The notes below the pieces were generated by a model. It was given only the letters and a program-made list of their open reading frames with translations, was not told where the DNA came from and did not search any database. The translations under genes and the position numbers were made by a program. Shown here in pieces: positions 10,617 through 47,996 of a DNA stretch of 64,000 bases (position 1 is the first letter of the stretch; every line of letters begins with the position of its first letter). The stretch comes from Dehalococcoidia bacterium (lineage in GTDB: Bacteria; Chloroflexota; Dehalococcoidia; Bin125): positions 1,587,170-1,651,169 of the forward strand of contig OY760135.1 of assembly GCA_963663185.1 (NCBI GenBank), in the 5' to 3' direction.

Positions 10617-11285
10617 ATGCAAGTCGTCGTTGCGCTCGCGGGCGAGGTCCACGATTCAGCGCTCGTCCGCAGTGCGCTTAACGGCGCAGATCTGATCGTC
10701 GCCGCGGACGGCGGCGCTAACCGCCTGCAAGAGCTGGGCATCCTGCCGCATGTCGTGATCGGCGACCTCGACTCGCTCGCCGGCGACGATCTCTTCCGCC
10801 TCAAGTCAGTAGGCGTGGATTTCGAGCCGCATCCCGCTCCCGAGCAACGCACCGATGGCGATGTCGCCATTGAGTACGCGCTCAAGCGCGGCGCAAGTCG
10901 TATCATCATCTTCGGCCTGTTCGGAGGCCCACGCTACGACCACGCCGTCGCCAACCTCTACCTGCTCACGCATCCCAGCCTGCGCCAGACTCCCACCTGG
11001 ACCGTCGACGGTTGGACCGCCCTGACCGTGCTCAACGGCGACGGCGTATCGCAAGCCCATTTCCAGGGAAGCATCGGCGACTACGTCACGATCACCGCCG
11101 TCAGCGAAACCGTCGAGGGCATCACTACCGTCGGCCTCAAGTGGCCGCTCGCCAACGCCACGTTCACGCGAGGGCTGAACGAAGGCACTTCGAACGAGCT
11201 CATTAGCGATCGCGCGATGATCCAGATCACGAGCGGCACCGCCTTCGCAACGCATCACTTCCGCAGCGAGCGATTGCCGGTCTAG
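10617..11285 (+). CDS. thiN: Thiamine diphosphokinase
   Basis: IVAADGGA, VIGDLDS, TDGDVAI, GGPRYDHAVAN, GTSNE. Confidence 0.9.
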   Translation: MQVVVALAGEVHDSALVRSALNGADLIVAADGGANRLQELGILPHVVIGDLDSLAGDDLFRLKSVGVDFEPHPAPEQRTDGDVAIEYALKRGASRIIIFGLFGGPRYDHAVANLYLLTHPSLRQTPTWTVDGWTALTVLNGDGVSQAHFQGSIGDYVTITAVSETVEGITTVGLKWPLANATFTRGLNEGTSNELISDRAMIQITSGTAFATHHFRSERLPV

Positions 11286-11363
11286 GTGTGAGTCTGTACG
11301 CTGAATTGGTAACGCTCAAGCGCGGCATGCGGTGCCACAATTCGGATGTACGGAGGTTGGGCT

Positions 11364-11941
11364 ATGACTGAAGCCAGCTTGCCGATTCAGTGGCGGGCAG
11401 GAAAGAACGGTATCCTCTCGCAATGGACAACTTGACCTCTCCGGGCAACGTCTGGCATGATGGTTGGAATAGCACACGAGAGTGCATGAGCATTGATATT
11501 GGTGATCCTGGTGAAGGAGTCCCTGGTCGGCCAGTGTATGCTGCGGGATACAATCCGAGACCCGTTGCAGCCTATGTATGGGCCAGACAGGCACAGCGGT
11601 GCATCGCATATCTCACCACCACAAACGATGATTCGCCACCTTCCTTTTCCGGCGGCCCCGCCGATCCATTAGTTAGGCTCGTGCATATCGATTTCTCGGT
11701 CGCTAATCCGAGGTCGATCGGATCATCTTGGAAGCTGCTTCAGCGGATCGATCCCTACAACGGGTTCGCGATCTACCTCAGCGTGACATCAGTGGTTTCT
11801 GGGGGTACCGACGAGTGCGACAACGAGTCAGATGGAGCCCATCTGCATATGGATGCGCCTGAGTCAGAGAGCGGCTCGCGCAACTTGTCGCTGAGTAGCG
11901 GTCAGTCGGTCTCCACTACAACCAACGTGTTCGGAACCTAA
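11364..11941 (+). pseudogene. Divergent LasA/M23-like Zn metallopeptidase, copy A, with an apparent -1 frameshift near 11420-11435
   Basis: GGAGG RBS then ATG 11364 (MTEASLPIQWRAGKNGILSQ, TGA at 11433-11435). Homology to copy B continues in the 11390-11941 frame: WH-x12-D(IG), LVHID, GAHLHMD. Confidence 0.7.
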
Positions 11942-11956
11942 GACAGGAGAGATACG

Positions 11957-12130
11957 ATGTCAACTTCTACGGCAGCAACTGTCCGATACCTGGGCGACGA
12001 ACCGCTGACTCTGATGCTTGCGACTGAGGAGGTGTATCACTTTGAGCCGAGAGCGGACGCGCGAAGTGTGCTGGCTGAGGACCTCGACTTGTTCCGAGAT
12101 TTGCCGCAGTTCGAGGTGGATGAAGGCTAG
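11957..12130 (+). CDS. 57-aa hypothetical protein homologous to the C-terminal domain of M23 copy B
   Basis: AGGAGA RBS; MSTSTAATVRYLGDEPLTLMLATEEVYHFEPRADARSVLAEDLDLFRDLPQFEVDEG; same frame as the upstream ORF. Confidence 0.75.
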   Translation: MSTSTAATVRYLGDEPLTLMLATEEVYHFEPRADARSVLAEDLDLFRDLPQFEVDEG

Positions 12131-12178
12131 GCCGAGCCATGGGCAACGACATCGTAGCTAGCTGAGGGTAGCTGAAAG

Positions 12179-13414
12179 GTGATTACGGCGGGCATGCTGA
12201 GTCCATGCGCCCTCCAACTTGCGCGGGCCGGAGTGATCTGGACTGTCGCCGCAATCGCGTTTGTTGCACCGTTTGTTGCACATGGTGGTGGTGGGCTTGA
12301 ACCCGTAGCGGCTAGATCGACGCCACACACTACGTATGCTCAGGCTGAGCGCTCTGATGCCGCCTGGTACCGAATAGCCGTTCTCACTGTCCAAGTCGAC
12401 GCAGCGCTGGAAGCGCTTCTGTTTGAACACCGGTGCCGACCCTATGGCTCAACTCCATCGACAGATGAGCAACCACTATTCGGCAAATATGCGATACATG
12501 AAGCACTGACCGCCGCTCGTCTGATGTGGCCCCATGTACTCACACTCTCTCCAGTACTGTCGAAGTATTACTGGCCGCTGCGGTTCCGCTTGGGGCAGAT
12601 TGCGCAAACCCGAGGGCAAGAACGAGCTGAGTTGGTTTGCCGTCCCGACTTCCACCTCATTCGAAGTCGTTGGAATCAAGTGCTCTCCGGTTCGGCGCCC
12701 GGCATACAACCCCCGTTTCATTGGCCAACCTTGCAGCGGCTCGGCGCATTGCGCCGGATTGGCGCAGCGTTTGATCGCGCCGTCGACACGACTTGCCACA
12801 GCCTAGATGCTGCAGATGCTGCGCTAACTTCAGATCCCGCTCAGGTTGCTGTGCTGAAACATTCTTTAGGTGCGGCCACAGCTACATTACGGAGCGCCCC
12901 TACTCCCAAGCCTCGTCAACGAGGATTGTTCCATCTGTGGCAAGGAAATCAGAGCGCTGTGGGGGAGTGGACGTCCGACCTGGAACGATCGTTAGGAGAT
13001 GGCGTTCGCCGCCACGTCTGTGGGCATCTGCTGTATCAGTTGCTTTGGGGTTCGTATTACACATGGCTGAGCCAAGACTACGATGAAGACGAGGCAATGA
13101 AACTGGATCAATTGCTGCAGTGGACTCAACTTGAGGTTGGTCTACGCCAAATCTGCGACTTCCCGAAGAGTGCCGCCTCACCGCTGATTCTCTTTAGCAT
13201 CGACAGGCTTGTGTCGCCTGTGCGTACCGTAGCTCCGTTGCCGGTCGAACTCCGCCCTCAACGGGATGAAGTCGTCGTAGCGGTGCAGAAATGGTTGCCT
13301 GAGCGTGATCAGGTGAGATCGTTGGAGGTGGGCGCTGTGACCTGTCCGGACTCGTCTCTGCAATCACTATCGGCGTTCTTGACCAACATCGCCGCACTTC
13401 CGCCTACGGATTGA
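12179..13414 (+). CDS. Hypothetical exported/membrane-anchored protein (cassette A partner)
   Basis: 411-aa ORF, N-terminal hydrophobic segment, lower GC than flanks; start may be 12194. Confidence 0.6.
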   Translation: MITAGMLSPCALQLARAGVIWTVAAIAFVAPFVAHGGGGLEPVAARSTPHTTYAQAERSDAAWYRIAVLTVQVDAALEALLFEHRCRPYGSTPSTDEQPLFGKYAIHEALTAARLMWPHVLTLSPVLSKYYWPLRFRLGQIAQTRGQERAELVCRPDFHLIRSRWNQVLSGSAPGIQPPFHWPTLQRLGALRRIGAAFDRAVDTTCHSLDAADAALTSDPAQVAVLKHSLGAATATLRSAPTPKPRQRGLFHLWQGNQSAVGEWTSDLERSLGDGVRRHVCGHLLYQLLWGSYYTWLSQDYDEDEAMKLDQLLQWTQLEVGLRQICDFPKSAASPLILFSIDRLVSPVRTVAPLPVELRPQRDEVVVAVQKWLPERDQVRSLEVGAVTCPDSSLQSLSAFLTNIAALPPTD

Positions 13415-35315: not shown

Positions 35316-36962
35316 ATGACCGACTGGACGAATCAGCTGTATTTCGGCGACAACCTCAGCGTGCTGCGTGAGCACATCCCGGACGAGTCAGTCGACCTGA
35401 TCTACCTCGACCCGCCGTTCAACTCCAACGCTACCTACAACGTGCTGTTCGAGGAGAGATCGGGTGAGGATCCTACGGCGCAGATCATCGCCTTTGAGGA
35501 CACGTGGCACTGGACGATCGAATCGGAGCGAGCCTACCGGGAGGTCGTGACCGAGGGACCTGACAAGCTCGGCCGATTGCTCCAGGCGATGCGCGAGTTC
35601 CTGGGCCAGAACGACATGATGGCGTATCTCACGATGATGGCCCAGCGTCTGGCTGAACTGCACAGAGTCCTCAAACCAACCGGCAGCATCTACCTCCACT
35701 GCGACCCGACGGCGAGTCACTACTTAAAGTTGCTAATGGATGCGGTGTTCGGAAGCAAACAATACCGAAACGAAATCGTTTGGCAGAGGACGCAGAGTCA
35801 CAACACAGCGAATCAGTATGGAAGAGTTGCTGACGTGCTCTTCTATTACTCCCGCGGTGAAAGCTGGACTTGGAATCCGATCTTCACTAAGTACAGCGAT
35901 GAGCAGCTTAGGCGTCATCGCTACGATGATGGCGATGGGCGCATGTACAGACTCGATGACTTAACTGCTCCAAGGCCCGATAGTCGATCAGGAAAGTTCG
36001 AGTGGCGGGGTACAATGCCCGGCGCCAATCGCGGTTGGGGGTACACACTAGAACAACTTGAACACTGGTGGAGTGAAGGGCGAATTCGAGCTAAACGCGA
36101 TGGAACTCCTCGCATGGATGGACTCAAGGTCTATCTGGAGGATACAGAAGGAAAACGTCTCCAGAGCATTTGGACAGATATACCGAGAATTGGTAACACT
36201 TCAAGAGAGCGTCTGGGTTATCCGACTCAAAAGCCGGAGGCACTGTTAGAACGCATCATTAGAGCAAGTAGCTCTGAGGGCGATGTCGTGCTCGATCCCT
36301 TTTGTGGCTGCGGCACGGCGGTTGTTGTCGCCGAGCGGCTCAAACGGCGCTGGATCGGCATTGATGTCACACATATCGCAGTTTCGCTGATGAGATACCG
36401 ACTCCAGGAGAGTTTTAGCGACGATCTTTCGGACTACGAAGTGATCGGCATTCCGAAAGATGTCGCCAGCGCACGCGCGCTCGCCACTGAATCGGAGCAC
36501 GACGGGCGATACCAATTTGAGTACTGGGCGCTCGGCCTCGTTGACGCACGCCCTGCCACCGGCAAGAGAGGCGCCGACTCGGGCGTTGATGGCTACATCA
36601 ACTTCTTCGATGACAATTCCGGCAAGGCCAAACGGATCATCGTGCAGGTCAAGAGCGGGCACGTCAATCGCGGCATGATCGCCACACTCAGGGGCGACAT
36701 GGAACGCGAAGACGCGGCGATCGGCGTCTTCGTCACGCTCGAGGAACCGACCGAGCCGATGAGGCGGGAAGCCATCGCATGCGGCTTCTACGAACCCGAG
36801 AGTCTGCCCGGCAATCAGTATCCGAAACTGCAGATCTTCACCATCGAACAGCTGCTGGAAGAGGCCAAGCCGAAGTATCCACAATTCGGCGGCGCTGCGA
36901 CCTTCAAGCGCGCGCCGCGCCACGTCGAGGAGGGCCAGCAGGGCGGGTTCTTTGGAGATTAG
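35316..36962 (+). CDS. Beta-class N6-A/N4-C DNA methyltransferase with C-terminal Mrr-like endonuclease domain
   Basis: LIYLDPPF (motif IV), YPTQKPEALLERII, DPFCGCGT (motif I), then GADSGVDG...IVQVKSG. Confidence 0.88.
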   Translation: MTDWTNQLYFGDNLSVLREHIPDESVDLIYLDPPFNSNATYNVLFEERSGEDPTAQIIAFEDTWHWTIESERAYREVVTEGPDKLGRLLQAMREFLGQNDMMAYLTMMAQRLAELHRVLKPTGSIYLHCDPTASHYLKLLMDAVFGSKQYRNEIVWQRTQSHNTANQYGRVADVLFYYSRGESWTWNPIFTKYSDEQLRRHRYDDGDGRMYRLDDLTAPRPDSRSGKFEWRGTMPGANRGWGYTLEQLEHWWSEGRIRAKRDGTPRMDGLKVYLEDTEGKRLQSIWTDIPRIGNTSRERLGYPTQKPEALLERIIRASSSEGDVVLDPFCGCGTAVVVAERLKRRWIGIDVTHIAVSLMRYRLQESFSDDLSDYEVIGIPKDVASARALATESEHDGRYQFEYWALGLVDARPATGKRGADSGVDGYINFFDDNSGKAKRIIVQVKSGHVNRGMIATLRGDMEREDAAIGVFVTLEEPTEPMRREAIACGFYEPESLPGNQYPKLQIFTIEQLLEEAKPKYPQFGGAATFKRAPRHVEEGQQGGFFGD

Positions 36963-39408: not shown

Positions 39409-40407
39409 TTATCCAACCAGGCAAGACAACAACAAGTCTTCGTACGTACTCACAGCCTGCCGCGCAATTTCATTGTCGCCAAAGCGAAATCCATCCGTCA
39501 AGTGACTTCCATCATTTCTTGATATCCACAACCGCCTCATCTCTTCCGACCACAGCTCCAACAGCCTCAACATCGGTTGCTCAGCCTGCAGTACACTAGG
39601 CCCGCACTGCTCATGGCGCACAATAACAGATGCTCCGCTAAACGCCTTTATCTGTGTTTGAGCAATACTCACAGCCAACAACAGCTTCGACGTCCCATCC
39701 TTATCATTACTTGAATTCCCAGTGCTTCCATAACAGGCCGTCACTAAGCAACTCTCCAACAGACTCCGCTTAATCAAGTGCAACTCAATCAACAACCTCC
39801 CTTCCCCACTACGCGAGGAATAAAGCGCATTGGAGTTTGTTCGTTCACCAGGTAACGACCACAACGCTCGATACATTGCATCTATCGCACCGTGAACATC
39901 ATTGCTACAGCGAAGCCCATCCAATACTGGATATTCAGATACTGCGACCGATAGGCAGTGATCGAAATCGCGCAACTGTTGCAATAGAGCAGTGCTAGCC
40001 CTGTACAGCCGGTCTTCGCTATTCTCCTCTCCAAGCAATTGGCCGCGCCACCCTTGCAGCATCTGAATCAACACACCAACTCGGAATTGTGATGCTTCGA
40101 GGGTACCCACGGCCCCACTGCGCAAGGCCTCCGCGTGATTGTCGTTGAAATATTCTTTGAGAAGCAGGGATGCCGAATCATACGCAAGTTCAATGTCAGC
40201 CATTAACACAACGATGCGCAATACCTCTGCATCAAATGGAATCTCTTCAGGCCGCAACTCCCTGCGCCCTCCATCCGATGTCACCGAATCCGGCGACTCC
40301 AAGCTTTGAGATCCGGATCCCGGGATCGGATCATGGCAACCGGTGAACAAGACCATGCTCAGGAACACCGCCAACCATGGGAGCACGACCCGCAACGGCA
40401 TCCGCAT
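39409..40407 (-). CDS. Hypothetical lipoprotein (cassette B partner)
   Basis: Lipobox VLFTGC; lower GC than flanks. Confidence 0.7.
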   Translation of the reverse strand: MRMPLRVVLPWLAVFLSMVLFTGCHDPIPGSGSQSLESPDSVTSDGGRRELRPEEIPFDAEVLRIVVLMADIELAYDSASLLLKEYFNDNHAEALRSGAVGTLEASQFRVGVLIQMLQGWRGQLLGEENSEDRLYRASTALLQQLRDFDHCLSVAVSEYPVLDGLRCSNDVHGAIDAMYRALWSLPGERTNSNALYSSRSGEGRLLIELHLIKRSLLESCLVTACYGSTGNSSNDKDGTSKLLLAVSIAQTQIKAFSGASVIVRHEQCGPSVLQAEQPMLRLLELWSEEMRRLWISRNDGSHLTDGFRFGDNEIARQAVSTYEDLLLSCLVG

Positions 40408-40448
40408 GCAACAGACCTTGCTGCCTCAACACCACGCTCCCCAAGATG

Positions 40449-41279
40449 CTAGCAGTGCCCGCACGGTGTAGGACCGTCCAGATCGGAGTAGCGATCACTT
40501 TCGGGTTCAACCACCAGTATGAAGTTGGGTAAATCGACTAAGCGTTTGGCGTCGGCCCACCTGACTTGAACCGCTTGATGCTCAGGTTCGAAGTCGAAGC
40601 GGCCATGGTGGTCTAGCTGCACGGATATCCGTTCTGTTCCACGATACTGGACCCAGACTAAGTCCGCTGCAGATGGCTCTGGGCCGAACGTGAAGGCTAG
40701 ATCGCCCGTGTCGACCTGTTGGTTGTGGTACAGGTCGCAATTCTTCGTCGCCCAACCAGGCGCATCCATATGCAGATGTTCACCAAAGTATCGCCAACTG
40801 CACAAGTCTCGGTTGTTCGGCTGTTGGGGTGAAACTTGACTCAGTGAGATAGTCGTTGCGGACAACGGCGCAACTGAACCAACCCTCGGCCAGACTCCAG
40901 TGCGAAGATTACGCGGATTTGAGCTGTCGAAATCCATATGCGCGTAGCGAACCACAGGATCACTTGCGGATATCGGGAGAGCGATCGTTGGTTGAGTGGG
41001 GCTTGCCATAGCCACGGCCGCACAGTCATTGAGTCTCATTGCCCACAGTGAGACTGACGAAAGCGACGGATTGACACCCGAAATGTATGTTGGATCACCG
41101 GACGTGGCGCCAATGTCCAATCCCATACAGCTTCGTTGACAGTGTTCGCCTTCGCCGTCGCAGAACGAATTGTGCCAAGGGGAAGCCTGCCCCGTCGGAG
41201 TACATCCGCAACCATTCTGGCTACTGGAGATATGGGCCGACGCCCCTATTCGCCACTCGAAAGTGAGAACGTGTTCCAT
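40449..41279 (-). CDS. Divergent LasA/M23-like Zn metallopeptidase, copy B, with fused C-terminal small domain
   Basis: H36...D55(LDIG), RYAHMD (H114), GEHLHMD (H168/H170); AGAGG RBS; no signal peptide; Cys-rich. Confidence 0.75.
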   Translation of the reverse strand: MEHVLTFEWRIGASAHISSSQNGCGCTPTGQASPWHNSFCDGEGEHCQRSCMGLDIGATSGDPTYISGVNPSLSSVSLWAMRLNDCAAVAMASPTQPTIALPISASDPVVRYAHMDFDSSNPRNLRTGVWPRVGSVAPLSATTISLSQVSPQQPNNRDLCSWRYFGEHLHMDAPGWATKNCDLYHNQQVDTGDLAFTFGPEPSAADLVWVQYRGTERISVQLDHHGRFDFEPEHQAVQVRWADAKRLVDLPNFILVVEPESDRYSDLDGPTPCGHC

Positions 41280-42567: not shown

Positions 42568-42642
42568 TGGAGCGGGAGACGGGATTCGAACCCGCGACCC
42601 TCTGCTTGGGAAGCAGATGCTCTACCACTGAGCTACTCCCGC
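42568..42642 (-). tRNA. tRNA-Gly (CCC)
   Basis: GCGGGAGTAGCTCAGTGGTAGAGCATCTGCTTCCCAAGCAGAGGGTCGCGGGTTCGAATCCCGTCTCCCGCTCCA; cloverleaf with encoded CCA. Confidence 0.97.
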
Positions 42643-45191: not shown

Positions 45192-47996
45192 TCAGTCCTG
45201 AGGCAGAGCGACCTCGATCTCTTGCACGATCTCTCCGAGATAGCGATCGTTGACTACGAGTCGGATGCGGTAGACGCCGGCCGGTGCTTCGCTGGTGTCC
45301 CAGCGGGCGAGCACGCCGCTTGCGGGCGCCTGGTCGGCGCTGGCCAGCGTCATCGCCGGGTCGTCACCGATCCGCCGAGCGCTGAGCGTCCAACCCGTCA
45401 GCTCGGCGCTGTCAGCTCGGCCTGCGAGAATCACTTCGCCGCGCGCGATGACCGCGCCATCAATGGGAGCGTCGAGTCGGATCGGAGCTTCGGCCTCGTC
45501 AACCGTGCCAGGACGCAAGTACGCGACCCGATGCGTTCGCAACCACTCCACCACTACCGGATCCAGGCTGGAACCGCCTCGTTCCGCGATCGTGGGAGGC
45601 TCCAGCCAGACGCCGTCTTGCAAGAATGCAGGCGGCGTATCGACAGTGGCGCGCTGGAGCGTGCGTCGGTCGACCGTGACCTCGAAGCAGATCCCGTTGT
45701 CAACCGCGGGCGCGGTGCGAATGGAAGTGAAGATCTCTTCCCGCCGTGTCGCGCAGGGATTAGCGAGTTCGCTGTGTCGATTGAGTCCATCGGGCTCGGT
45801 GATCTGACTGCGATTGGCCAGGTTCACCGCTGGCGTGTACACCGCGGCGCGGTGAATGGCGCCGGGCGTCGGGAAGGCTTCCACCGCTACACCCTGGTGC
45901 GCGGCGATCATGACTCGATTCCAGATCAGTCCCGCCGTGCTCACTGACGAACCGCCGGTCATCGGCGACTCGTCGGCGTTGCCGACCCAAACGCCTATCG
46001 CCAGCTGCGGCGTATAGCCGACCGTCCAATAGTCTCTCCGCAGATCGTCCATGCCTGGATCGCCCGCCGTGCCGGTCTTGACGGCGGCGGGACGACCGAT
46101 TTGCAAGAGGCTGTCCGAGCCGTAGAGCAAGGAGCGGGCGTCGTTGTCAGAGAGGATGTCCGTGATCTGATAGACCTGCGCGGGGCTGGCGACGGCGTGG
46201 CGCTCCGGTTCGCCGCTCGCCGACCACTCGTACAACAGCCGTCCGTCCGCGTCGCGGATCTCGAGCACGGCGACCGGATCGAGACTTCGGAAGCCGAGCG
46301 GCAGGGAGATCGTGGTCGGATGACCCTTCATCTCGCCGCCGTTGGCCAATGCGGCGTAGGCGAAGGTCAGGTCCAGGAGCGAGACCTCGCCGCCGCCGAG
46401 CGTGATGGACGGTCCATACGCGCCCGGATCATGCATCGTGGTGATTCCGATCTGATGCATCGTGTCGAGCAGCGCGGAGAGCCCAAGTCGGTCCGCCGTG
46501 TTGAACGCGGGCACGTTCATCGAATTGGCGAGCGCGCTGCGGATCGTGACCGGTCCGCGAAAGACGGCGTCGAAGTTTTGCGGTTGGAACTCGGTCCCGT
46601 CCGCTTCTGTGTATGTCGTCGGCACATCCCAGAGCACCGTCGCGGGATGCCAGACGCGCGGGTCGATCTCAAAGGCGGTCAGATAGGTGAGCGGCTTCAG
46701 CGCCGATCCGGGCGAGTGCGTTGCGGTCGCCAGATTGACCTGGCCATCGATCGTCTCGTCGAAGAAGTCGCGGCTGCCGACCATCGCCAGAATCTGACCG
46801 CTGGACGGTTCAATCGCGACCAGCGATGCGTTGTGGGCGCCGGTCTCGGCTTCGAACCCGGTGATCGCCGAGCGCAGCTCGAGTTCTGCCCGTTCCTGCA
46901 GCGAGTAATCGAGCGAAGTTCGGATGCGCAGGCCGCCGTTGTTCATCAGGTTGTCGCAGCCGCCGGCGCCGATCGGCGGGACGAAGCGTCCCAGCCGGCA
47001 GAGCGCCTCGACCTCGGCCTGCACGTAGATCACGTAGTGAGGCGCCGTAATCGTGAACTCAGCCGAGTCGTAGCGCAGCGGCTCCTCCCAAGCGGCCTCG
47101 GCTTCGGCTGATGTGATGTAGCCGTGCCGCTGCATCAGATCGATCACTTGCGCCTGTCGACGCTTGGCGCCTTCCGGATTGACGAGCGGGTTGTAGAGCG
47201 ACGGCGCCTGCGGCAGTCCCGCCAGCATCGCTGACTCGGCCAGACTGAGTTCGGCCGCCGACTTGCCGAAGTAGCGTTGACTCGCCGCGCCGATGCCGTA
47301 TGAGAAGTTGCCGTAGTAGATCGAGTTCAGATACCACTCGAGGATCTGTTGCTTGCTGTACTCATTAGTCAGCTCGACGGCGAGGATGGTTTCCTTGACC
47401 TTGCCGCGCACTCGGTTCCAGGTGCGACCGCTGCGCTCTTTAGGGGGAACGAGGACGTTCTTGACGAGCTGCTGGGTGATTGAAGAACCGCCCGATCCGC
47501 CAAGGAACTCAGAGCTGCCCACGCCAAAGTTCTCCCACGCCGCGCGCAACAGTCCGCGCAGATTGATCCCTTCGTTGTTCCAGAAGGACGCGTCTTCCGT
47601 CGCCACGGTGGCGTTGATGATGTGCTCGGAGACGCGGTGCAATCGGACCGGCGCGCGCAGTCCGTCGTGCGGCCGGGCGTATTCGAAGAGCAGGACGCCG
47701 TCGGCGCCGCTGCGGTCGAAGATTCGACTGCTGCCCAGCAGCCGCTGCGTCTCTTCGATCTCGTCTGGCGGCGCGAGGTCGTTGGCGACGTCGGAGTAGA
47801 TCAGGTAAGCGCCGCCGGCGACGGCGCCAAAGAGGAGCATGGGCATACCGGCCAACAACAGCGCGATCATCCAGATGCGTGTCCGTTGAGGCTGGGCTCG
47901 ATTGCCGCGTTTGCGACGACGGCTGCGCATCGCCAGACGCGTGGCGAGCGTCAGACGACGCTGGCGATGTTTGGAGTCTGGCGGCGTCGCGCTCAT
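45192..47996 (-). CDS. Class A penicillin-binding protein (transglycosylase-transpeptidase)
   Basis: ATEDASF, GGSSITQQLVKN, ILEWYLN, SPGSALKP (SxxK), SMN, KTGT. Confidence 0.93.
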   Translation of the reverse strand: MSATPPDSKHRQRRLTLATRLAMRSRRRKRGNRAQPQRTRIWMIALLLAGMPMLLFGAVAGGAYLIYSDVANDLAPPDEIEETQRLLGSSRIFDRSGADGVLLFEYARPHDGLRAPVRLHRVSEHIINATVATEDASFWNNEGINLRGLLRAAWENFGVGSSEFLGGSGGSSITQQLVKNVLVPPKERSGRTWNRVRGKVKETILAVELTNEYSKQQILEWYLNSIYYGNFSYGIGAASQRYFGKSAAELSLAESAMLAGLPQAPSLYNPLVNPEGAKRRQAQVIDLMQRHGYITSAEAEAAWEEPLRYDSAEFTITAPHYVIYVQAEVEALCRLGRFVPPIGAGGCDNLMNNGGLRIRTSLDYSLQERAELELRSAITGFEAETGAHNASLVAIEPSSGQILAMVGSRDFFDETIDGQVNLATATHSPGSALKPLTYLTAFEIDPRVWHPATVLWDVPTTYTEADGTEFQPQNFDAVFRGPVTIRSALANSMNVPAFNTADRLGLSALLDTMHQIGITTMHDPGAYGPSITLGGGEVSLLDLTFAYAALANGGEMKGHPTTISLPLGFRSLDPVAVLEIRDADGRLLYEWSASGEPERHAVASPAQVYQITDILSDNDARSLLYGSDSLLQIGRPAAVKTGTAGDPGMDDLRRDYWTVGYTPQLAIGVWVGNADESPMTGGSSVSTAGLIWNRVMIAAHQGVAVEAFPTPGAIHRAAVYTPAVNLANRSQITEPDGLNRHSELANPCATRREEIFTSIRTAPAVDNGICFEVTVDRRTLQRATVDTPPAFLQDGVWLEPPTIAERGGSSLDPVVVEWLRTHRVAYLRPGTVDEAEAPIRLDAPIDGAVIARGEVILAGRADSAELTGWTLSARRIGDDPAMTLASADQAPASGVLARWDTSEAPAGVYRIRLVVNDRYLGEIVQEIEVALPQD

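Follow-up and report, generated by a model that had tools for sequence, protein, structure and literature searches.

The type VI secretion system pairs Tse1-Tsi1 and Tae-Tai are peptidoglycan-hydrolase effectors and exported immunity proteins of contact-dependent antagonism; we know of no such contact-dependent delivery system in the Chloroflexota. Here, we analyze two cassettes, A and B, located in 64,000 nucleotides of a Dehalococcoidia bacterium genome (contig OY760135.1 of assembly GCA_963663185.1, positions 1,587,170 to 1,651,169), a stretch referred to below as the window. The cassettes resemble the Tse1-Tsi1 and Tae-Tai pairs in that a signal-less enzyme gene is followed by the gene of an exported or lipoprotein partner, in their accessory, island-like distribution, and in the fast divergence of the partner and its retention as an orphan after effector loss. 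The cassette partner is also predicted, from its sequence, to lie in the compartment where the enzyme would act. They differ from these pairs in that neither the window nor the related loci revealed a secretion apparatus, a PAAR/VgrG/LXG/MIX-like trafficking domain, or an adaptor family.

A further comparison is offered by the M23 bacteriocins lysostaphin and zoocin A, whose lytic M23-type enzymes are likewise encoded beside a self-protection function (Lif and Zif, respectively), and by latent LytM with its occluding pro-region, which is alike in idea to the small domain of the cassettes, an extra segment, fused in cassette B, that would keep the enzyme latent (PMC4594094; PMC9662197). Unlike the cassette enzyme, lysostaphin and zoocin A are secreted with signal peptides, and Lif and Zif are cytoplasmic FemABX-like transferases that alter the cross-bridge, whereas the gene 3 proteins of the cassettes are helical and predicted to be exported. 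M23 peptidases are defined by an H(x)nD motif, an HxH motif, and an additional upstream catalytic His (PMC9662197).

The cassettes constitute an uncharacterized, lineage-restricted system, and the observation on which the analysis is based proved to be real and not due to chance. Part 1 is a signal-less, all-β protein of ~190 amino acids (aa), with invariant residues in M23A active-site order. Part 2 is an acidic domain of ~60 aa, encoded by a separate gene in cassette A and fused to the C-terminus of part 1 in cassette B. Part 3 is a predicted exported, α-helical protein of 330 to 410 aa that has a lipobox in most cassette types and is unrecognizable between types. We tentatively favor, with somewhat less than even confidence, the reading of cassettes A and B as decaying and intact copies, respectively, of a Chloroflexota-restricted effector/partner/immunity-like conflict module.

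Two diverged copies of a three-part cassette

Cassette A (11364-13414, + strand) consists of three co-oriented open reading frames (ORFs), listed as 11390-11941 (183 aa), 11957-12130 (57 aa), and 12179-13414 (411 aa). It lies downstream of the thiN/TPK gene (10617-11285, +), identified by a Pfam TPK match and located directly 5' of the cassette. Cassette B (39409-41279, - strand) contains two ORFs, encoding proteins of 276 aa (40449-41279) and 332 aa (39409-40407). A first-pass annotation of the sequence had described a lower-GC block after thiN, in the same orientation, free of mobility genes and collinear with the 39409-41279 block, and this description was borne out. The GC content of cassette A is 0.56 to 0.57 compared with 0.64 in its flanks, no mobility genes were found within the block, and the 183-aa product of A gene 1 is 30% identical to the 276-aa B protein (E 2e-19). 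The 57-aa A protein matches residues 210 to 253 of the B protein (E 8e-6), and cassette B is therefore a gene 1-gene 2 fusion. Judged by these alignments, A and B are diverged paralogs of one three-part cassette. The proposed order of enzyme, small protein, and exported protein holds as a duplicated three-part system, with the amendment that the small protein of B is fused and not the product of a separate gene. Both third proteins are exported by sequence, as had been proposed, but they share no homology detectable with BLASTP or hhalign.

Both blocks are compositionally foreign: their GC content is 0.52 to 0.57 and their GC content at third codon positions (GC3) 0.55 to 0.64, compared with 0.64 to 0.66 and 0.80 to 0.87, respectively, in flanking genes. 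The low-GC stretch at 39 to 41 kb (GC 0.54-0.55) is restricted to cassette B. The sole tRNA gene of the window, tRNA-Gly(CCC) (42568-42642, -), is separated from cassette B by ~1.3 kb that hold a single acyl-CoA dehydrogenase gene. No third cassette or orphan fragment was found in the 64-kb window by tblastn with all family members, and a scan for promoters and terminators gave no signal above chance.

The enzyme-like proteins share an active-site signature with M23A peptidases

The enzyme-like family was compared with three M23A proteins: LasA (staphylolysin, 3IT5, sequence verified), pseudoalterin (6IK4), and β-lytic protease (8AF1), the latter two sequences being taken from PDB alignments. 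Like the M23A proteins, the cassette enzyme has a β-rich domain of ~180 to 200 aa with the signature order (P)W-R-x-G, H-x12-D, R-C, H-x-D, and C-x-G-x-STGPHLH. Residues invariant across the family are, in cassette-B numbering, H36, D55, C86, H114, D116, C160, H168, and H170. The motifs listed in the first-pass annotation are all present and correspond to invariant or near-invariant columns of the family alignment: WH..., DIG, NP, WA, C.A, DP.VR..H.DF, NPR, W, and HLHMDAP. All M23A signature positions occur in the order found in LasA (WRxG, H-x12-D, RC, HxD, CxG..STGPHLH) and are collinear with LasA W11/R12/G14, H23-D36, C65, H81, and C111...H120/H122; the two conserved Cys of the family align with the C65 and C111 positions.

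The first zinc-ligand motif, WH-x12-D(I/V), is found in every member that has the N-terminal part, with the same spacing as LasA H23-D36; the exception is cassette B of the window, which has H-x18-D in place of H-x12-D. The HxH motif, H168-L-H170, is invariant within (S/T)TGPHLHMD(A/G)P and near-identical to LasA STGPHLHF. The additional His, H114 in VRxxHxD, is also invariant and was aligned by hhalign with LasA YYH81MD, although it is 52 to 54 residues from HxH, compared with 39 in LasA. Other spacings diverge as well: WRxG is separated from the first His by ~23 residues rather than 12, Asp from the middle His by 63 rather than 45, and the middle His from HxH by 52 rather than 39, and HxH is followed by M-D-A-P instead of F-S/E.

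When the family was aligned with the three M23A proteins using hhalign, RC paired with C65, HxD with H81, and CxG..GPHLH with C111...H120/H122 (P 0.0035-0.005), although the reported probability was only 7 to 9%. The greedy alignment is collinear over 132 to 140 columns, from WRxG to the C-terminal G-Q-S-V strand. Its score of 24.7 was reached by none of 300 column shuffles (mean 12.7, maximum 23.3).

As the first-pass annotation had stated, the enzyme lacks a signal peptide. None was found in any enzyme-like member, and the proteins start 0 to 6 residues before the WRxG strand. Their upstream in-frame extensions are not hydrophobic, so there is no secreted pre-pro-enzyme form; the M23A enzymes differ in possessing a pre-pro region and signal peptide.

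The first gene of cassette A is a frameshifted pseudogene

The first-pass annotation had taken the enzyme ORF of cassette A as an intact gene, missing a 1-bp deletion in codon 24. We read this lesion from an alignment with related contigs (loci designated L) together with three-frame translation. The true start of gene 1 is ATG 11364, which aligns with the starts of the orthologs in L001, L003, and L016; a Shine-Dalgarno-like GGAGG (11352-11356, +) is read in the sequence 7 nt before it. The GTG at 11390, chosen as the start by the ORF finder, is without support among orthologs. From ATG 11364 the frame reads MTEASLPIQWRAGK... for 23 codons and includes the WRxG found at the N-terminus of all intact members. 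This N-terminal remnant (11364-11435, +; MTEASLPIQWRAGKNGILSQWTT) ends in TGA. The conserved Cys codon 24 has lost one base between 11434 and 11435: the window reads ACT TG-ACC, L001 ACT TGC ACC, L002 TGC, and L003 TGA. Because of this loss, a TGA stop arises at 11433-11435 and the remaining 168 codons, the gene body (11435-11941, +), are in a different frame from that of the start. The body retains WH-x12-D, RC, VRLVHIDF, NPR, and GAHLHMDAP. L012, the same locus in an independent short-read assembly (ERR3887492), is 100% identical over 2135 bp, deletion included, and since the identity extends across the whole cassette, the deletion is not a one-off sequencing error. The first gene of cassette A is a pseudogene of an enzyme-like protein with LasA motifs and should be annotated as such, and the name "M23 peptidase" should not yet be given to any gene of the cassettes.

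Programmed frameshifting was rejected for the window copy: the required -1 shift at A-ACT-TGA-C has no slippery heptamer, and the orthologs are each broken elsewhere. The third base of the conserved Cys codon 24 is hit twice, by the deletion at 11433-11435 in the window and by the TGC to TGA change at 310-312 of L003. The L003 TGA keeps the reading frame of the remaining gene, as is classic for Cys/Sec alignments. Selenocysteine is unlikely at this position, since the 60 nt that follow do not form a better fold than shuffled sequences (z -0.2), and a nonsense mutation is more likely. Genes 1 and 2 of cassette A share a reading frame and are separated by TAA and five codons (11939-11959), which is why tblastn with fused-type proteins crosses the boundary between them. 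The split loci L003, L005, and L008 are not in frame, which points to a polymorphism of fission and fusion and not to programmed read-through.

The enzyme gene is recurrently lost at thiN-linked loci

The thiN-linked set comprises seven independent loci, and gene 1 is intact in none of them, each having a different lesion. In the window (= L012), it is the 1-bp deletion at codon 24; in L001, a 97% identical strain, a 2-bp deletion directly after HLH; in L003, the TGC to TGA change at codon 24; in L002 and L016, frameshifts near codon 179 and codon 92, respectively; and in L017, an internal deletion that joins the N-terminal part to gene 2. In L015, genes 1 and 2 are absent and gene 3 begins 32 bp past TPK. 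TPK is intact in six of six loci and gene 3 in seven of seven, and gene 2 is open in all orthologous loci that still carry it.

Gene 1 is nonetheless strongly constrained: its ratio of nonsynonymous to synonymous divergence (dN/dS) between lineages is 0.07 to 0.08, with dS >1. Its pN of 0.08 to 0.20 is similar to that of TPK and the alkyl sulfatase (~0.09). Because the lesions differ while dN/dS is this low, the losses of the enzyme are recent and independent in each lineage. Compared with gene 1, genes 2 and 3 evolve at two to four times the rate (pN/pS 0.3-0.5), with their frames kept open. The GC3 of the thiN-linked cassette (window 11364-13414, L002, L003, and L015-L017) is ~0.2 below that of its neighbors, despite synteny across lineages with saturated synonymous divergence; the cassette has thus not ameliorated towards host composition.

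Loss-of-function polymorphism is not confined to the thiN-linked clade, since a fused-type cluster of >90% identity holds both an intact allele, P0034 (291 aa), and a split allele, P0014+P0010. Relative to P0034, the split allele has a frameshift after ...VYVAGK that yields pieces of 100 aa and 242 aa (MXZ20324.1, Caldilineaceae bacterium SB0665_bin_25). Among gene 3 homologs, P0026 looks N-terminally truncated, whereas its cluster mate P0031 is full length.

Small domains and exported partner proteins

Cassette A gene 2 (11957-12130, +) encodes an acidic small partner of 57 aa (pI 4.1), homologous to the C-terminal domain (residues ~205-260) of the cassette B protein. The latter (40449-41279, -) is intact: an enzyme-like domain at residues ~1 to 203 and the small domain are followed by a disordered tail that contains Cys (...PTPCGHC), and P0005, from a 3.2-Mb genome, shares 98% identity with it. 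Several short Foldseek alignments of the cassette B model in BFVD (51-68 columns), with probabilities of 0.94 to 0.99 but E values of 0.1 to 0.5, include DUF7349 proteins of Bacillus phages CP-51 and BSP38 and a 67-aa Myoviridae protein, and probably match the small C-terminal domain. All the fused-type proteins (that of the window, P0006, P0007, P0009, and P0034) end in a disordered tail with D-R-(Y/F)-x-D-L-(D/E), followed by a Cys-rich end: PTPCGHC (window 40449-40475, -), ESCG, GCDSCSG, GGCGCAEKPGCG, or GGCCGGH. This tail is absent from the separate small proteins and, from its composition, might be metal-binding or redox-active.

Cassette A gene 3 (12179-13414, +) encodes a protein of 411 aa, or of 406 aa if translation begins at ATG 12194. 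The protein has six conserved Cys and a hydrophobic N-terminal helix (signal or anchor) and is predicted to be all-α. It has no match in Pfam, NCBIfam, or the PDB, and no sequence relatives of known function were found. Cassette B gene 3 (39409-40407, -) encodes 332 aa with a signal peptide and a lipobox-like FTGC and has no detectable similarity to A gene 3. All gene 3 products open with an N-terminal hydrophobic signal, and a lipobox-like Cys is predicted in four of the five non-A types. They form at least four groups without detectable mutual homology, hhalign aligning only the signal-peptide/lipobox region. Neither the individual proteins nor the gene 1 and gene 3 profiles retrieved anything in sequence searches of the PDB, and none of the five cassette products gave a usable result with Pfam, NCBIfam, PADLOC, or PHROGs.

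Distribution and conserved layout of the cassettes

Among 5.8 billion clustered proteins, the A protein retrieved four matches and the family profile ten; an exhaustive HMMER search of 1.84 billion representatives gave 11 family members. None of the members has a Pfam domain or an informative name, the sole names being those of "hypothetical protein" entries from Chloroflexota metagenome-assembled genomes (MAGs), one of them labeled Caldilineaceae. A search of 185,579 species genomes gave matches in two Dehalococcoidia MAGs only, and no relatives were found in two scans of JGI metagenome contigs, in one of IMG/VR viral contigs, or by tblastn among plasmids and phages. The cassette is a rare accessory system found only in a few Chloroflexota genomes.

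Each recovered locus has one of two layouts, either separate genes for proteins of ~190, ~62, and ~330 to 400 aa, or a fused gene for 276 to 291 aa followed by a gene for ~335 aa. The partner genes are adjacent and co-oriented in every locus (the window, twice, L001-L009, L013, L014, L016, and L017), so that the first-pass expectation of homologs consistently followed by partner genes held in all of the 10+ loci from independent assemblies. Type-C cassettes adjoin IS21/DDE transposases. Between the window and L009, identity falls from 84% for the ECH gene flanking the B locus to 35% for gene 1, and gene 3 can no longer be recognized; by this comparison, the B locus is hypervariable.

Another lower-GC stretch of the window (0.58-0.59) contains a 548-aa ORF (35316-36962, +). 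It matches in position and length a gene of L013 whose product hits N6_N4_Mtase, Mrr_cat, and NA-iREase1, and probably encodes a fused restriction-modification enzyme.

Discussion

Under the conflict-module reading, part 1 would be a metal-dependent hydrolase whose target is in the cell envelope, with peptidoglycan peptides as the most likely substrate; part 2 would be its chaperone, latch, or cis/trans inhibitor; and part 3 would be the cognate, protective, immunity-like partner shown outside the membrane. The enzyme would be recurrently lost and the exported partner retained as an orphan, as in an effector/immunity conflict module. The Dehalococcoidia-like host makes peptidoglycan, since the window encodes a class A penicillin-binding protein of 934 aa (45192-47996, -; Transgly E 9e-55, Transpeptidase E 2e-19). 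The effector, adaptor, and immunity arrangement suggested by the first-pass annotation is supported indirectly by the fact that the enzyme gene is lost repeatedly while the exported partner is retained.

A number of results weigh against this reading. None of the 11 members matches the Pfam Peptidase_M23 model (PF01551) at E ≤10, the family profile found no M23 chain in the PDB by HMMER, and with HMMER filters off only the 12-residue C.G.STGPHLH motif scores (P ~1e-3). Of the LasA-type M23A assignment made in the first-pass annotation, the motif likeness stands (H-x12-D, the middle His, and C-x-G-..-STGPHLH), whereas the LytM/M23 fold that it had expected did not appear. The AlphaFold2 model of the cassette B protein is nearly all β (pLDDT 86.7, pTM 0.77) and gave no Foldseek match in the PDB or BFVD at E ≤1e-3; there was no M23 protein among the best 50 PDB matches, and a single phage M23 protein was found elsewhere at E 0.4 and TM 0.23. 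The active-site signature is therefore M23A-like at the motif level only, and M23 membership is not established. The AlphaFold2 model of gene 3 with ten homologs is all-helical but of low confidence (pLDDT 47), and PADLOC and PHROGs gave sub-threshold noise only (ZorA, E 0.03, on gene 3; an Rz-like match, E 0.14, on a signal peptide). No export signal, trafficking domain, or secretion apparatus for the enzyme was found around either cassette or the related loci, in flanks of up to 10 kb. Because the databases searched contain no intact thiN-type enzyme, there is no evident opponent against which gene 3 would protect, and gene 3 could have an independent function.

One alternative is that part 1 is not a peptidase but a new β-rich fold with a His/Asp/Cys-lined, possibly metal-binding site. 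Convergence or coincidence would then account for its likeness to M23, and the role of the cassette would be an unrelated one, for example in metal handling, redox chemistry, or surface modification. Foldseek found neither M23 nor any other significant match, the best being weak ones to jelly-roll CBM/APC10-like sandwiches (TM 0.1-0.2); all tests at the level of hidden Markov models were negative, with the low hhalign probability already given; and the Cys-rich tails of the fused forms (CGHC, GCDSC, GCGC..GCG, GGCCGGH) suggest metal or redox chemistry. Against this alternative, five catalytic positions and both Cys of the LasA disulfide occur in the same order, the H-x12-D spacing is identical to that of LasA and the STGPHLH heptad near-identical, and the real hhalign score exceeds those of all 300 shuffles. 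We regard this alternative as somewhat unlikely. The cytoplasmic location of the enzyme, as judged from sequence, would fit a split or fused toxin-antitoxin or abortive-infection-type defense, with the small acidic domain as a cis or trans inhibitor of a cytoplasmic enzyme and the exported protein in an accessory or surface-sensing role. The fused case would be analogous to CapRel and other fusions of toxin and antitoxin. The small partner is acidic (pI 4.1) and alternates between separate and fused forms, the cassettes are on small islands, some beside IS elements or a restriction-modification-like gene, and loss-of-function alleles of the enzyme are frequent, as expected of a costly toxin. 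Against this, there is no PADLOC or PHROG match, the family was not found on phage, plasmid, or viral contigs, and the exported, Cys-rich protein is left without a role, with no known trigger; we consider a defense system of this type quite unlikely.

The least probable explanation, in our estimate, is endogenous cell-wall remodeling, in which a housekeeping or conditional autolysin would be paired with an exported lipoprotein regulator or activator, as in EnvC/NlpD-like or lipoprotein-controlled hydrolases. The M23-like signature, the peptidoglycan synthesis genes of the host (the penicillin-binding protein of the window; L013), and the stable gene linkage, with a thiN-linked copy that is syntenic across lineages with dS >1, are compatible with such a role. 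An autolysin would not be expected to lack a signal peptide, to be restricted to a handful of genomes and missing from nearly all Chloroflexota, or to show atypical codon usage, nor would its gene be expected to be broken or deleted in all thiN-linked loci while a hypervariable "regulator" persists. The conflict module is favored over a housekeeping autolysin because a signal-less enzyme-like gene is linked to a fast-diverging exported partner in foreign islets, and because loss-of-function alleles of the enzyme are frequent while the exported partner is kept as an orphan.

A further reading, doubtful in our view, is that the cassette is a conflict system, not described before, of Chloroflexota associated with sponges or with marine habitats. 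Its enzyme would be a new-fold metal hydrolase, either diverged from M23A beyond fold recognition or convergent on its active site, with the small domain as a built-in latch and the exported, hypervariable partner as the determinant of specificity and immunity. The enzyme gene would pass through cheater-like cycles of loss, under strong long-term purifying selection yet with no intact copy in the sampled thiN-linked loci.

Whatever the function, the cassette presents an evolutionary puzzle: an enzyme gene as constrained as its housekeeping neighbors is broken differently in each sampled lineage, while the exported partner has been retained. An active enzyme would represent a highly divergent family of LasA-like hydrolases that lack a signal peptide and have their own partner proteins, in a phylum about whose envelope biology and interbacterial antagonism almost nothing is known. 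Such a family would broaden the range of known M23-type chemistry and could point to a new principle of self-protection.

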